The notes beneath the pieces were generated by a model. That model had not been told where the DNA came from and ran no database searches. It saw nothing but the letters and a program-made list of their open reading frames with translations. DNA of 64,000 nt from Mytilus edulis (lineage: Eukaryota), in contig NC_092355.1 of assembly GCF_963676685.1 (NCBI RefSeq), positions 48,360,001 to 48,424,000 of the forward strand, given 5' to 3'. Positions 52,629 through 61,000 of the stretch are shown here, piece after piece. Made by a program: the position numbers and the translations under genes. Numbering within the stretch: position 1 is the first letter of the stretch; every line of letters starts with the position of its first letter.

Positions 52629-55424
52629 AGATATATACAAACACAGAACCTTTTAGAAATACAGACACAAGTGCAATTTGAGCAGGAGCTCTTGACAATT
52701 CAACAATCCTATTGGCTATGTGAAACATAACATTTGAATGAATATCAATGATTACATGTTTGTTTTATTGTTGAATGGAAACTTATAGTCAATAAATATA
52801 AAATAATGTATTATTACTTTAAAATATATTTGAGATCTTGCCTGTTGAGTGTGGACCATGAATGTGACCTGAACACATTTAATAAATAAATACTGGGTGT
52901 ATACACAAGAACAACTGACCACATTAACTTTCAATCATATTTTTACTCTTATAATATTTATGAAAAATTACTTTCATTTGATTAATTTCTGGAGAAATTT
53001 GGTGTGGATTTAAGTGGAGTAGGGGGTGTTTTAGAAATATTCCATTTCACTTTAAAATCTTTTTAGAAACTCCACCACTTTTATAGATATTTTAACCATG
53101 CATGTTTCTATTAACCATTTAACTATAATAACATGTAATATAGACATGAATAAGAGTTCCTCATACAGTCTTTAACAAATATGAATACATCATGTACATT
53201 ATGTCAAGCTCATATCATATTGAGCAGGAGTCTCTTGAAGTTGTGAATAGAACAAAAATAATCAAAGATCTGTTATATTTGGAAGTGCCTGCAGAGAGCA
53301 TTTATGCAATTTTTTTATTCTGGCAAAACCTGGTTAATCTATTAAAATTCTTGATGGTTAACAATCATGTAGATTGGACTTTTGATGGATATTTATAGTT
53401 GTCATGTAAGCTATCATACCACATCTCTGCATTTTTTTCCTCACCTGAAAAGAAAGTTGAGTCCAGAGTAACTACCTGGTGGCGCTATAAATCATTTGTA
53501 TAAAGCTTTAAATTTCAGAAGGCAGAAGACCAGAATACATCATAGCTTGGAAGCATACGCCTTATGATACAAAGTTTCCGTCTGTCATGTATGTCCATTG
53601 TTCTTCTTGACCTCATTTTCATGGTTCACTGCTTGAAAAAAGTATAGATTTTGGTCATGTGAATTATCATACTCACTTATTATGTGTAATAGTATAACTA
53701 TATTTGATAATTTTGGATCCTTGCAAGGTTGTCAGGTCTGTCAGTGAGGTTTAGACCATTTCATGGGTCAGTGATTGAGGTTATGGTAGATTTCTTCAAA
53801 GATACTACATGTATAATTAATAGTTTAACTTTATATGGTTTGCAAAACAATTTGAAGGTTTACACATTTATCTGACCTTGATCTCACTTCAATGTCCATT
53901 AGTATCAAGTTTTGGTGGTTTTGTATGTTTCTTAGATAATATTAGAAATAAATCAGTTGAATTTGGTTGATGACCTGTCTGGCAGGTTTCATCTGACCTT
54001 AAGCTTTTTCCATGGTTCATTGGACAATAGTTTTAAGTTGTGGTGGTCTGGTCAATTCTCAGATACTAAATGAAGTACAGACACTGACTATATTTGGTGT
54101 ATGGAATGAATGAAAGGTTTCATGTTATCTATCAGCATGATCAGGTTTTATGTGGCCTTGACCCAATTTTCTTGGTATTATACACATGTTAGTTTTCATG
54201 GTTGGTCAGTTTATCAGATGAAACAAGTATTCTTTTGGGTATTTCATGGCAAAACATAGTTCCCTACCAGTTAAAAATTCATTGTATGTGTATATAGTTC
54301 AACTTGATATATAACTTGTCATGGTGTTAATTATACAACAAGTATCAGGTCAATATCTTTAACAAAAAGCCGGAAAAAAATTCGAAATTAATCTGTAACT
54401 TGTCATGATAAAACCATACATCAAATATCAAATCAATATCTGGAAACAAATAGAAAAAAGTGTGGAAATCTGATTTGCTAACTGACAGATGGACAGACGA
54501 ACAGACAGTCAGAGTGCAAACCTTAGGTCCATTTTGACTTCGTCGTTAGGGGGACTAACTATATTTGGTGTATTGATTGAGGTAAGGTGTATATGCCTGG
54601 TTTGGTAGACCTTGACCTCATGTATTTGGTAATGTAAAATTTGTGATACATGTACAAAGACTTAAGTTAAATATAAGTTCAATCAAAGGCACAAGGGGAG
54701 GAAACTCTGGATCATTTTGAAATAAGGCCTAACAGTTAGTAGTTAGAAAGGTCACTTTGACTTTTGTAAAGCTCTAGTTATCAATTGTCAACTTCCTTTC
54801 GGACTAATATTATGGCCCTTAATTGCCTCAGTTGGTGTTTAGCATGTGCATATTAAAATTATACAGGTATGCACTCATTTCACTTTCCATGCTCATAAAA
54901 CACAATCTTACCTCACTGAGAATGAGATAATAAAATTGAGAATGGAAATGGGGAATGTGCCAAAGAGACAACAACCTGACCATAGAAAAAAACAACAGTA
55001 GAAGGTCACCAATAGGTCTTCAATGTAGCGAGAAATTCCCGCACCCGGAGGCGTCCTTCAACTGGCCCCTAAACAAATATATACTAGTTCAGTGATAATG
55101 AACGCCATACTAATTTCCAAATTGTACACAATTAAAATAATACAAGACTAACAAAGGCCAGAGGCTCCTGACTTGGGACAGGCGGGGTTAAACATGTTTG
55201 TGAGATCTCAACCCTCCCCCTATACCTCTAGCCAATGTAGAAAAGTAAACGCATAACAATACGCACATTAAAATTCAGTTCAAGAGAAGTCCGAGTCTGA
55301 TATCAGAAGATGTAACCAAAGAAAATAAACAAAATGACAATAATACATAAATAACAACAGACTACTAGCAGTTAACTGACATGCCAGCTCTAGACTTCAA
55401 TTAAACTGACTGAAAGATTAAGAT

Positions 55425-55490
55425 TTCATCATATGAACATCAGGCACAATCCTTCCCGTTAGGGGTTTAGTATCATACCATCATAATATA
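55425..55490 (-). promoter_or_regulatory. Type II SECIS element of the Naiad 3' UTR; 5' arm of helix I displaced to about 57956-57968 by the LTR insertion
   Basis: Minus strand: ATGAT-GGTATGATACT-AAA-CCC(CTAAC)GGG-A-AGGATTGTGCC-TGAT. AUGA/UGA core, 11-bp helix II (10 of 11 pair, 3 G-U), apical AAA with mini-stem; helix I TCATAT/ATATGA is restored when the insertion is removed. Confidence 0.88.
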
Positions 55491-57955
55491 TGTAACCGAA
55501 GGGGCGTGGTTACGGGGTCATGATTTTATTCGTAAAATCATTAGAAAAACTATTACGCTATGAAAGTCACCAATATCAGGAACTAGTTGTTGCAGTTCAC
55601 AAAAATCCAACACATTCAAGTCATATAATTTAATTCCAAGCCAAAAATCTAGTATAACATATACAAAGGATAACGTCAACACAATATGACTCCTACTGTA
55701 TCTAATGGATCTTACTATTTCTCAGTATATTCTTTTTCAACTAAATTTACAAAGTTTACAATAAGTATTTATACTAGATATCAAAAATAGACAATACTCA
55801 ATTAACATGACAATACTCAAATTAAAAATGACATTTCAAAACTTTAATCTATAAGTGACAGCATTCACATTAATTAATACAAAAGATAATTATAATTTAT
55901 AATACTCATATAATCTCATTCTTTCAATAATTTTCACACCTTTAGTATGAATTAATGTCTTTCATATTAATTTCTGTAACTCAATAAATCTGTCTCAAAT
56001 ATTTGAAAATCATATGTCACTAATTAAGATTAACACATTATTTGTCTATACATGTAAATATTTAAATTTGTAAAATAATATCTTTTCTAAAAGTTCAATT
56101 TCTAAATAAATAATAAAATAAAAATTAAGTCCAAATTAGCCTGGTGACAAATGGCTCCTCCTCAACAAATAACACGTCCTCGTGTTAATAAAAGTTAATA
56201 AAAACGTCCTCTATTGTTCCTACTGTTATAATTAGAATTAAAAGATTGTCTTTGATTGTAACCATTCACTGGTTGATGCCACATCTGCTGTTGCGGTTGT
56301 TGTTGGTTTTGTTGTTGCTGTTGTTGTTGGTTTTGAAATTGTCTTATCTGCATTTCAAGCTGTACTATTTTTATTTCATATTTTTCTCTTTCTTCTTTTC
56401 TGCCCATTGTTGAATCTTTAAATAAATCTAATGTTTTTTGTAGTTGATCATAATCTAGTTGAAGTTCTAAATATATCGGATGTCTTTTCACTATTTCATT
56501 GTACTCTACATCAATTTTGCTTTTCTCCAAATATTGTTGTTTCTTAAAATCATTACTCACTGTAATTATCCTTAAATTTTCAGTCCTTAAGAATTCATTT
56601 TGCCAATAAAGATCATTAATATTTAGGTTGTCTGGTGTTGATTTAAATTTATCCAATTCTTCTCGAAATTCCTCATTTTGTTTAACATAAAGTTGAGCTC
56701 TTTCCCACATTGTATGCAATTGTTCTTTTAGGTTGCTTATTTCCTCATCTTTCATATTATGTTGATCCTTAATTTTTTCACCATTGATATTTTTCTCCTT
56801 TAATTTTTCTTTTACCCTTTTTAGTTCCACTTTAACTGAATGATTTGTTTGTAAAACACTTACGAAGGCTGCATTTCTGATATTAGAAAATGGCAATTCA
56901 AACATTGGCTGTTTTCTGTCCATATGTTGAATCCATCTTGATCTATCCCGTTCTGTTCTTCTTTTACTTTTCACTTTGGTTTTCTTTATTGTTGTTTGTT
57001 GTTCTTTTGCTTTCAAAGACGGTATACGAGCAAAACACATTCTTGCATAATGTCCCTTTTTTCCACATTTGAAACACATTTTAGAATTAGCAAAACAAAT
57101 TCTGTTATGTAATATTCCACATTTGCCACACACGCGTCTTTGACTAGGAAAGTTCCAGAGTCTCCATTGAGGTCTTAAATTAATATCCATGTTGTTAGAT
57201 TTGTTGATGAAACTGGGAACACTCACTTGCTGCTATTAAAGGTACTGGAATCGTTGTTGAGCATAGAAGTCAACGTGCCCGGGTCCTCCACCATAATGTA
57301 ACCGAAGGGGCGTGGTTACGGGGTCATGATTTTATTCGTAAAATCATTAGAAAAACTATTACGCTATGAAAGTCACCAATATCAGGAACTAGTTGTTGCA
57401 GTTCACAAAAATCCAACACATTCAAGTCATATAATTTAATTCCAAGCCAAAAATCTAGTATAACATATACAAAGGATAACGTCAACACAATATGACTCCT
57501 ACTGTATCTAATGGATCTTACTATTTCTCAGTATATTCTTTTTCAACTAAATTTACAAAGTTTACAATAAGTATTTATACTAGATATCAAAAATAGACAA
57601 TACTCAATTAACATGACAATACTCAAATTAAAAATGACATTTCAAAACTTTAATCTATAAGTGACAGCATTCACATTAATTAATACATAAGATAATTATA
57701 ATTTATAATACTCATATAATCTCATTCTTTCAATAATTTTCACACCTTTAGTATGAATTAATGTCTTTCATATTAATTTCTGTAACTCAATAAATCTGTC
57801 TCAAATATTTGAAAATCATATGTCACTAATTAAGATTAACACATTATTTGTCTATACATGTAAATATTTAAATTTGTAAAATAATATCTTTTCTAAAAGT
57901 TCAATTTCTAAATAAATAATAAAATAAAAATTAAGTCCAAATTAGCCTGGTGACA
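55491..57955 (-). mobile_element. 2465-bp non-autonomous LTR retrotransposon (Gypsy-like); LTRs 55491-56149 and 57297-57955
   Basis: Two 659-bp TG..CA LTRs with one difference seen by eye; TATA TSD; PBS TGGTGGAGGACCCGGGCA (57293-57276, tRNA-Ala-like); purine tract GAGGAGGAG (56163-56155); AATAAA about 35 nt from the LTR 3' end; no pol. Confidence 0.95.
56195..57190 (-). CDS. Zinc-knuckle / coiled-coil / Q-N-rich protein (331 aa from the first ATG), sole ORF of the LTR element
   Basis: Intact ORF filling almost the whole internal region; CGKCGILHNRIC-x6-CFKCGKKGHYARMC near the N-terminus, basic patch, long E/K/Q-rich helical region, tail QNQQQQQQQNQQQPQQQ..NSNYNSRNNRGRFY. Confidence 0.85.
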   Translation of the reverse strand: MDINLRPQWRLWNFPSQRRVCGKCGILHNRICFANSKMCFKCGKKGHYARMCFARIPSLKAKEQQTTIKKTKVKSKRRTERDRSRWIQHMDRKQPMFELPFSNIRNAAFVSVLQTNHSVKVELKRVKEKLKEKNINGEKIKDQHNMKDEEISNLKEQLHTMWERAQLYVKQNEEFREELDKFKSTPDNLNINDLYWQNEFLRTENLRIITVSNDFKKQQYLEKSKIDVEYNEIVKRHPIYLELQLDYDQLQKTLDLFKDSTMGRKEEREKYEIKIVQLEMQIRQFQNQQQQQQQNQQQPQQQMWHQPVNGYNQRQSFNSNYNSRNNRGRFY

Positions 57956-58014
57956 TATATATGAGAAGAACATAACCCGTGTCATGCCAACAACTGGTTT
58001 TTGAATAAATGTGT

Positions 58015-61000
58015 TTAGTTCCGATGCAAAGACCCTATAAGTGAATCAATATTAACGCCAAAATATGCAATCTTTAATGACCTGACAACAGTATCGTAAC
58101 TATATCCCTTCTTAATAAGTCTATTCAAAGGTTTTGTTAGTTTTTGAGGTGAATACTGTCACCTTTGTGCTTTATAAAGAATATTTCCATAAAAAATTGG
58201 ATGTGAAATACCTGAACGTATAAGAAGTCTGCATGTTGAGCTATATTTACGAATGATGTCCTTATACTGATGATAAAATTTAGTAAATGTTTTGACTAGT
58301 TTGTGATATCGAAAACCCTGGTGTAATAATTTTTCAGTAATACATAAATTTCTCTCGTTAAAATCTAAAACATTGTTACATACACGAGCGAATCGTACAA
58401 GTTGAGATATATAAACACCGTAAGATGGTGACAAGGGAACGTCACCATCTAAAAATGGATAATTAACGATAGGAAATGAAAAATCATCTCTTTTATCATA
58501 AATTTTAGTATTCAGCTTTCCGTTAGTAATATAGATATCAAGTTCGAGGAAAGGGCAGTGGTCATTGTTAGTATTAGCTTTATTTAAAGTAAGTTCAACA
58601 GGATAACTTTCTTTAATATACATACTGAAGTCGTCATTATTGAGAGCCAAAATATCATCCAAATATCTAAAAGTATTATTAAATTTGTTTATCAGATGTT
58701 GTTTCGATGGGTCTTTGCTTATTTTTGTCATAAATTGTAACTCATAGCAATACAAAAACAGGTCCGCAATAAGTGGTGCACAGTTAGTCCCCATTGGAAT
58801 TCCGATAATCTGACGATATACGAAATCCCCAAAGCGAACAAAAATGTTATCTAGTAAAAATTCAAGGGCATATATAGTATCAAAGCATGTCCAATTGACA
58901 TAGTTTTTTTGTTTATTGCTACTAAAAAATGACCTAAAAGAGTTTGAACATATATATTCACATTCTGACTTTTTAAATGCCCATTTAATTAGGTGTGTGA
59001 ATTTTTTCTTAATGAGAATGTGAGGCAATGTGGTATACAGGGTAGAAAAATCAAAACTTTGAACAGATTTAAAATCACCAATATATAAGCATGCAATTTA
59101 TCAAGTACTTCCAACGAGTTCTTGACACTCCAAAAGTAATTAATTCCACTATTTTCGAAGGCCTTATTTGAACAATTTATTATCAGGTTTTTAATTGTAC
59201 CAAGTGTGCTGGTAAGAAGAATAGACAATTTAGTAGTGGAACAATGGCTTGAAGACGAAATAAATCTATATTTGTAAGGTGTTTTGTGTAGCTTCGGAAG
59301 CCAGGACATAGTTGGGACTTTCATTGTATTTGGCTCTGCTTGTAAAGCGGTAGCTAAAAGTTTATGTATGTTACAGATGTCGTTTTCTGAAAATGGAGTC
59401 AGTTGGAATGTTGGTGAATTGGTGATTTCTTTTTTCAGAACCTCAATGTAAAATTTACGTCAAACAATAATAATATTAATAGCAGCTTTATCGGCCAGGA
59501 CAAAAACAAATTTCTTGGCTAGTTCTTTTAGTTTATGTTTGAAACAAGAAATAGGTTTTTTGTGGTTATTGTTAATAGTAAAATGTTCTTTAAAATGTTG
59601 AATACGTATATCAACTATCTTCATTACTGAAATAAAAAAAGAGTCCAAAGATTTTTTGTCAGCTTTTTCCCGTTTTATCCATTTTATACAGTAAGTATGG
59701 AGTGAGTCGACTTAGAAATGGATGAAAATAAATATAAATACAAATCAAAACATCGGTATTCAGATGTGATCAAAACAAGATCTTCATCTGGTGCAAGAAA
59801 TGTTTTACTTAAAAATGGAAATAACACTTTATAAATTTCGAACGTCCGGAACGCTTTTCTAAATTTAATCTCATCGGGGACGCTCACATCTAAACATTAG
59901 AGATCCAGTGATTAATAGATACGTAGAAACGTTACTGTAGAGGCGGATTAAGAGAGTGCGCCCCCCCCTTTTCTAGGAAAAATTTGGTTGATTGTATAGG
60001 AAATCACGGAAGCGTGAACGGAGCGGGTCCCCTCTTAGACAGTAAGTGGACCCCCATTTCTGGAATCGCCACTTCAACTTAGGACCTACATTACAATTGA
60101 AACAGAAAAAGACGAGTTTGATATGGAAACTAAATGTCAGAAAAAATTGTCCAGAAAAAAAACCCATAGCCCCCCCCCCCCCCCCCCCCCAGGAAATCAA
60201 ATGGTTGCTGCCTAAGACAATCTTTTGTTTCATTTTTTTTTTTTTTTTTAATTTCTAGCATGAGGCATTTGCCTCAATGTAGTTACGGCCCTGGTCGTGG
60301 ATGATATCACGACAATCATTCCAATTAATAATTCACGGGGGATGATATTTAGGTCCTTTACTGAGGAATGATTTTAACTCTCGGTCTTGAACGATGTTAT
60401 TAAGATCTCCTGTTATAACATGGGAAATGGGTCCATTAAATATATTCGGAGGTACTACAATTACATGAAGTAGGTGTATTTTCACTGATATTAACATCTT
60501 TACACAGTTGACTATAATTAAACACAAATTTTCGGGTAGATTTCTTGTAAATGTGACAAATAAGAGGTAGCTCAGTATTGTCAAAATATCCAGGAATTTG
60601 TTCTTTAACAGAATGGTCGTTAAATATACTGGCAATATTTACAAAATCAAAACCTTTATTGACATACTTTATTTTAATAAAATGTTTTTTATGATCTTCA
60701 GGGCGATCAATTTTGGGAAATAGTTTAGAATAACAATATGCCATAATAATTTGAACAATTTCATACTTAGGACTGCTATATGAAATTGTGTTGCAATCCT
60801 CCAAAATTTTATTTAACTTATTAACCGGTAATGAACAGAGTTTTGTTAACAGATAATGTCTGCCGTTGTTTTTTGAAATAGAAATTAGGTCAGAAATATT
60901 GGTATGATTGGTCCGAAATTTTCTTTGATTGCCATTTGTCCTACGACCGTGAGAACGGTTTTTACGAACAGTTTTAGAAACTATATCCAAAATGTTAACG

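Follow-up and report, generated by a model that had tools for sequence, protein, structure and literature searches.

The window analysed here, a stretch of 64,000 nucleotides of Mytilus edulis DNA (NC_092355.1, positions 48,360,001 to 48,424,000), holds an LTR element with one open reading frame (ORF) and no enzymes of its own. This raises the question of what its protein does and which enzymes copy and integrate it. The element spans 2,465 bp (55491-57955) on the minus strand, and its features are arranged from the 5' to the 3' side as follows.

57956..57959, no strand: TATA target site duplication (TSD), 5' side of the element (sequence and empty-site joints)
57297..57955, minus: 5' LTR, 659 bp, TG...CA (LTR alignment)
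57574-57579, minus: TATAAA, candidate promoter box in the 5' LTR (sequence)
57276..57293, minus: primer-binding site (PBS), separated from the LTR by 3 nt, pairing with host tRNA-Ala(AGC) at 18/18 positions (genomic tRNA comparison)
56195..57190, minus: the one ORF, encoding 331 aa, coordinates with stop codon (the subfamilies share the start Met)
57035..57130, minus: double zinc knuckle, aa 21-52, C-x2-C-x3-H-x3-C then CCHC, Gag nucleocapsid-like (Pfam, profiles)
56888..56971, minus: family signature, aa 74-101, basic helix KS...RD..R, then LPF (alignment, AlphaFold model)
56291..56848, minus: long helices, aa 115-300, predicted coiled coil (AlphaFold models)
56198..56335, minus: disordered Q/N-rich tail ending with an Arg/Gly/aromatic motif (Q+N count, AlphaFold model)
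56150..56163, minus: short polypurine tract region preceding the 3' LTR (sequence)
55491..56149, minus: 3' LTR, 659 bp (LTR alignment)
55629-55634, minus: ATTAAA, candidate polyadenylation signal in the 3' LTR (sequence)
55487..55490, no strand: TATA TSD, 3' side of the element (sequence and empty-site joints)

A very young element without pol

The two LTRs (55491-56149 and 57297-57955), which enclose an interior of 1,147 bp, differ at 1 of 659 aligned positions, and the very young age proposed in the earlier note is borne out. The 4-bp TSD (55487-55490 and 57956-57959) flanks the element, and the empty site, with 55487 joined to 57957, appears in three of four runs, in contigs that come from further copies of the host repeat. 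The PBS (57276-57293) matches the 3' end plus CCA of the genomic tRNA-Ala(AGC) at 18 of 18 positions; the perfect 18-nt pattern has 34 matches in the genome, against 0 for a backward-read control pattern. The purine tract is short, with 9 purines (56155-56163) lying five bases off the LTR. All the parts that the earlier note had listed, near-identical LTRs, a TSD, a PBS, a purine tract and a single intact ORF without pol, were found. No tRNA gene of the Helenus type was found within the LTR. Four runs, one of them RNA according to its record, yield contigs that cover the ORF thinly; two contigs start inside the 5' LTR, at 57501 and 57511, and hint weakly at an ordinary LTR transcript.

The surroundings of the element (55000-55490 and 57956-59459) are a very high-copy repeat that hosts it. 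At 58159-59459, two overlapping minus-strand frames carry an RT-like YLDD motif with no Pfam RT match; we take these frames to be Penelope-like.

A knuckle and coiled-coil protein family

The ORF runs from the Met at 57190 to 56198 on the minus strand, and zf-CCHC is its sole Pfam match above the cut-off. In two AlphaFold models (pLDDT 72 and 81), the knuckles lead into a basic helix and a short LPF turn; long helices then run for ~185 residues, and the tail is disordered. The helices of the pLDDT 81 model span residues 76-97, 116-184, 191-236, and 238-304. These predictions agree with the order read earlier from the sequence, N-terminal knuckles (aa 21-52) followed by a putative long coiled coil (aa 115-300). 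The trimer-type motif [RK]hxxhE was counted 26 times against a shuffle mean of 6.4 (maximum 16), and the strict RhxxhE 9 times against a mean of 2.4 (maximum 9), a weak test in both cases, since shuffling destroys the heptads. Foldseek searches against the PDB and viral sets gave no match at E 0.001 or better, returning weak knuckle-sized rows only, and the best score in a protein atlas search (0.79) is a lead only. Xretpos, which reportedly has a CCHC knuckle and a leucine zipper, would be the nearest architecture to the mussel protein.

We measured the tail by a Q+N window count. The Q/N-rich tail of the earlier note is real in the window copy, which reaches 62% Q+N across 40 aa, but Q/N-richness is not a family trait: among the 10 subfamilies, only the tails of A and B reach 40% Q+N or more, as do those of 3 of 61 database relatives. 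What recurs in the tail is a net basic charge, present in 44 of the 61 relatives.

In profile comparisons, the protein is related to Gag at the knuckles. The 12 Gags used for one profile came from related complete elements; this profile matches the family proteins at the knuckles only, and it gives a broken-gag control 50 bits across the capsid region. Neither this profile nor the two AlphaFold models revealed a capsid, in agreement with the earlier reading. The N-terminal profile of the family scores best (50 bits) on the Gag of the complete family L217, at 19-34 bits on the other Gags of the tRNA-Ala-primed clade described below, and at 31 and 25 bits on the Gags of loci L045 and L053, which we presume to be Mag-like. 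The knuckles are therefore Gag nucleocapsid-like, as had been proposed, but the L217 type fits them better than the proposed Mag type. Mag elements have a 5-bp TSD; the duplication here is 4 bp, and a 5-bp match was found in 0 of 73 elements. The post-knuckle signature gave nothing significant among the 1,070 ORFs of Pol-bearing loci tested. Derivation of the coiled coil and tail from a Gag spacer was considered and rejected, the scores in the genome being sub-threshold, with one 12-bit match among 86 relatives.

A protein search of the genome returned 96 matches out of 121 scored candidates. These loci fall into nine subfamilies, A to I, whose LTRs are distinct and measure ~360-730 bp, with interiors of ~1.0-1.2 kb between them; the window element belongs to subfamily A. 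A tenth subfamily, J, with a single knuckle, was found through the primer-site search. Over the aligned parts, the other subfamilies are 21-54% identical to the window protein. Subfamily A has 51 DNA matches; two copies are full-length, and in one of these the ORF is interrupted. It also includes a copy truncated at its 5' end and solo LTRs. Among 15 LTR-only regions read, seven are full-length subfamily A solo LTRs without a PBS, five of these with an exact TSD; the others align in part, belong to other subfamilies, or are the truncated copy. Loci L007/L008, L048, and L273 hold tandem copies with a common LTR.

Full-length ORFs follow from 58 of the 70 starts examined, a set chosen by protein search and biased upward, and an exact 4-bp TSD flanks 42 of 55 two-LTR copies by automatic boundary call. 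With a counting script of our own, we obtained pairwise dN/dS values of 0.17-0.55 inside seven subfamilies, and A compared with B gave 0.25-0.27; the window copy and locus L002 differ by 21 replacement and 22 silent changes (pN/pS 0.21). The ORF is conserved among copies, with dN/dS not near 1, and with ten subfamilies, mostly young and intact, the element is no one-off deletion derivative; on both points the earlier note had left the outcome to such counts.

A profile search of 1.84 billion database representatives found the post-knuckle signature in 86 of the best 150 proteins; none of the 86 is longer than 376 aa, and a CCHC precedes the signature in 79. Two relatives carry oyster names (Magallana gigas and Saccostrea cucullata), the first being the only name that taxon look-ups of 30 distant proteins yielded, and the named homologues of the window protein come from four Mytilus species. 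In four relatives (P0066, P0133, P0135, and P0139), a further pair of knuckles lies at the C-terminal end, behind the coiled coil, a placement like that in Gag; these proteins are possible intermediates in the origin of the family. The gene models P0005, P0008, P0126, and P0151 join pieces of the ORF to other proteins, among them one under the name Rotatin, which reflects either mis-annotation or exon capture.

Comparisons with described elements place the family beside several groups. TR-GAG and gag-retaining plant LTR elements, as the cited passages present them, are alike in LTRs, PBS, PPT, TSD, and one ORF with no enzymes, whereas the mussel ORF lacks a capsid domain, places its knuckles first, continues with a family-specific helix and coiled coil, and resides in an animal host (PMC13570524). 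Pol-less single-ORF LTR elements also occur in animals, such as MaLR (PMC3769647) and Xenopus 1A11 and Xretpos (PMC4585706); likened by description only, these share the multi-copy LTR-ORF-LTR arrangement without pol. The passages on MaLR describe it without a PBS (PMC3769647), in contrast to the 18/18 site of the mussel element, and 1A11 is described there as Gag-like (PMC4585706). Assignment to TRIM elements was rejected, as the element has 2,465 bp and a selected ORF and TRIMs are characterized in the cited part as <1 kb and non-coding (PMC10886601). In the full-text literature, we found neither the element family nor a gag-less mollusc lineage described; Repbase and subscription journals, outside this search, may hold unnamed entries.

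The tRNA-Ala-primed Gypsy clade and its gag-less lineage

By following the 34 perfect primer sites and their relatives, we reached a Gypsy clade with tRNA-Ala-type, often mismatched, primer sites (99/97 support in a 32-row RT tree). The clade includes complete gag-pol and gag-pol-third-ORF families, in most of which the LTRs are 99.6-100% alike; the third ORF has no Pfam match. Its Pol-bearing families share the primer and the TSD length with the window element's family. Regarding the autonomous Gypsy with the same LTR ends and PBS that the earlier note had sought, the primer type is indeed common to this clade, but no helper with the element's LTR was found among the 15 LTR-only regions read. 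The complete families resemble, by description, the "ancient errantiviruses" in their gag-pol-third-ORF order and mismatched tRNA-Ala-type PBS (PMC13524379). In the cited portion of that source, the latter are complete elements with an F-type env and tRNA-Ala primer sites, and its supplementary table 1 has 8 mytilid elements, all F-type (PMC13524379).

Within the clade, four families, P1-P4, have the protease 340-875 nt past the primer site, without gag, and the 12-Gag profile finds nothing in the seven P leaders tested. P1-P4 are monophyletic (100/99 in the 32-row RT tree and 99 in a 19-row tree). Their Pol is intact, with 1,566-1,652 aa in the order PR-RT-RH-IN and its own start codon, and the LTRs of intact copies are 99.6-100% alike. 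The primer type and the 4-bp TSD are those of the window element's family. Of 33 P1/P2 5' junctions, 23 are followed directly by a protease match, and a further one carries an insertion; the rest belong to a non-coding derivative family, truncations, and one chimera. A total of 51 database proteins group with P: the protease lies within 200 residues in 42, an N-terminal W-x-C..C peptide is common to 37, and a knuckle before the RT occurs in 0 of the 51. With these proteins added, the P1-P4 node has a support of 0.33 in FastTree, which counts against a partnership. Because of this support, and because the database proteins come without DNA context, we only infer that P-like elements outside this genome lack gag.

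BARE-2 is said to be another gag-less LTR element. The P lineage differs from Tos17 and BARE-2 in being Gypsy, in retaining the protease, in its four deep families and conserved start peptide, and in the complementary nucleocapsid-only lineage alongside. With Tos17, as far as the cited passages describe it, the P lineage shares youth, its own enzymes, and a clean absence of gag (PMC3977881).

Several further observations concern the clade. In P-type Pol (L199:1962-6755, L204-L208), the W-x-C..C peptide is basic and lies ~53 residues ahead of the protease motif, and the C-terminus is longer, with several chromo-like repeats by eye; both are candidate docking parts. A non-coding family (L152, L272-L275; five loci, one tandem) has a ~1.9 kb interior with P2's leader and LTR end. 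Primer sites throughout the clade are mismatched or gapped versions of tRNA-Ala(AGC), in complete and defective elements alike (L199-L238, L017, L037, L047, and others), and some copies carry the perfect 18-mer, as copying off the primer would give; our guess is that the kept mismatches may evade tRNA-fragment silencing. A second Ala isoacceptor behind these variants was rejected after reading four tRNA loci, the tRNA with a similar 5' end being tRNA-Cys. L139 and L147 consist of an LTR end, the exact 18-nt primer site, and then unrelated DNA, and look like integrated plus-strand strong-stop DNA. The LTRs of several families (L037, L043, L047, L240, L241, and L244) are TA...TA, not TG...CA, with exact 4-bp TSDs. 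In L213, L214, L219, L221, L222, L225, L227, and L229-L231, gag and pol are in-frame with a single stop codon between them, which suggests readthrough.

Two lineages with complementary gene content

Two co-resident young lineages have complementary gene content, knuckles and coiled coil in one and PR-RT-RH-IN in P1-P4, and they likely work as halves of one split retrotransposon. The window element would be transcribed from LTR to LTR. The knuckles and basic ends would bind RNA and, nucleocapsid-like, chaperone primer annealing and strand transfer; the coiled coil would oligomerise the protein into a ribonucleoprotein in the manner of LINE ORF1p; and P-type Pol, made from its own start codon, would be recruited through RNA and would copy and integrate both RNAs, each half-element providing what the other lacks. 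The RNA binding, the oligomerisation, and the contact with Pol we infer. In foamy viruses, Pol is made separately from Gag and packaged through RNA, according to the cited section (PMC7828637). LINE-1 ORF1p, as presented in the part cited, combines a coiled coil with an RNA-binding module, basic ends, and capsid-free packaging; the mussel protein might work similarly, but it has no RRM and sits in an LTR context, an analogy and not homology (PMC5940361).

That the protein is a capsid-free Gag substitute for the P enzymes, with or without a borrowed capsid also involved, is the reading we tentatively prefer, at slightly less than an even chance. Its bolder form seems unlikely: an old bivalve Gypsy lineage would have split into Pol-only and nucleocapsid-coiled-coil elements, each with its own LTRs and mutually dependent, to give a segmented, capsid-free LTR retrotransposon in which an ORF1p-like oligomer replaces the capsid. 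We know of no LTR reverse transcription without a capsid. Moreover, capsids are available in this genome, since the complete families of the same clade and primer type are young and intact, which weighs against the partnership.

This availability is also the ground of the strongest rival, in which the family and P each parasitise the complete tRNA-Ala-primed Gypsy families on their own: in line with the adaptor inferred in the earlier note, the protein would coat its own RNA and dock it into helper capsid particles, and P would borrow Gag, as gag-less Tos17 is thought, in the cited passages, to borrow it from a complete relative (PMC3977881). It is a possible explanation that comes close to the preferred one because the helpers are young here and because such gag-less passengers have, in the same passages, this plant precedent (PMC3977881). 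The helpers share the primer type and 4-bp TSD, and the best knuckle match is to the Gag of a complete family, L217. It requires, however, that two old parasite lineages, independent of each other, kept genes that complement each other exactly.

The most direct link between the two lineages is a chimera. At locus L218, a P1 LTR and spacer are followed by a perfect 18-nt primer site and then by the interior and 3' LTR of subfamily B, and the switch falls exactly across the primer site. Annealing of plus-strand strong-stop DNA through the primer site is an established retroviral mechanism, and L218 would be the expected product of P1 plus-strand strong-stop DNA annealing to B minus-strand DNA via the common primer site. 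It is a single event, and since its P1 LTR is 5'-truncated and without a TSD, a DNA-level rearrangement is possible. The other 32 of the 33 P1/P2 5' junctions contain no further chimera, the P3, P4, and complete-family junctions being outside this screen. Among the nine family members with a perfect primer site, the only chimera has a P1 LTR and none has a complete-family LTR, which speaks against two parasites of complete helpers; two passengers co-packaged in one helper particle would, however, yield such a chimera too.

The LTR ends give a divided picture. The mean match is 12.5/20 for P against 11.5 and 9.7 for the complete families, and the lowest value, that of the env-bearing families, argues against those as helpers. 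The four best matches of the window copy are P4, P3, P2, and P1. For subfamilies D, G, I, and J, the best end matches are to complete families, which counts against the partnership and favors the two-parasite explanation. Two further points weigh against the partnership: no long sequence common to the family and P was found, and non-coding P2 derivatives also multiply in the same genome, so that some passengers can do without encoding the protein in cis.

An improbable third explanation is that the protein competes or defends, either as a dominant-negative or decoy nucleocapsid against rival elements or by suppressing host silencing to shield its own RNA. The coiled coil diverges fast and the predicted RNA-binding head is fixed, as conflict would produce, and Ty1 p22, a truncated Gag form, reportedly restricts its own family. 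Against conflict, dN/dS between A and B is 0.19-0.27 in both protein halves, and positive selection was not seen in the pairwise means. Finally, a recent deletion derivative or host-domesticated gene with the ORF as a passenger, which the two full-length copies of subfamily A, one of them interrupted, might suggest, is refuted for the family by purifying selection, by the TSDs at many unrelated insertion sites, and by a signature absent from the Pol-bearing loci, with relatives in oysters besides, and is almost certainly wrong.

The element family is a real protein-coding non-autonomous LTR family under selection, and apparently undescribed. On a cautious reading, an old and active protein-coding passenger family lives beside an equally old gag-less Pol lineage. 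Its protein matches no curated family except at the zinc knuckle, and RT-based surveys would miss the knuckle-coiled-coil family and misfile the gag-less Pol lineage. If the two are partners, they form a genome-segmented retrotransposon, in which it would be testable whether LTR-type reverse transcription needs a capsid or runs in a LINE-like ribonucleoprotein, and which would show Pol recruitment without Gag fusion beyond foamy viruses.
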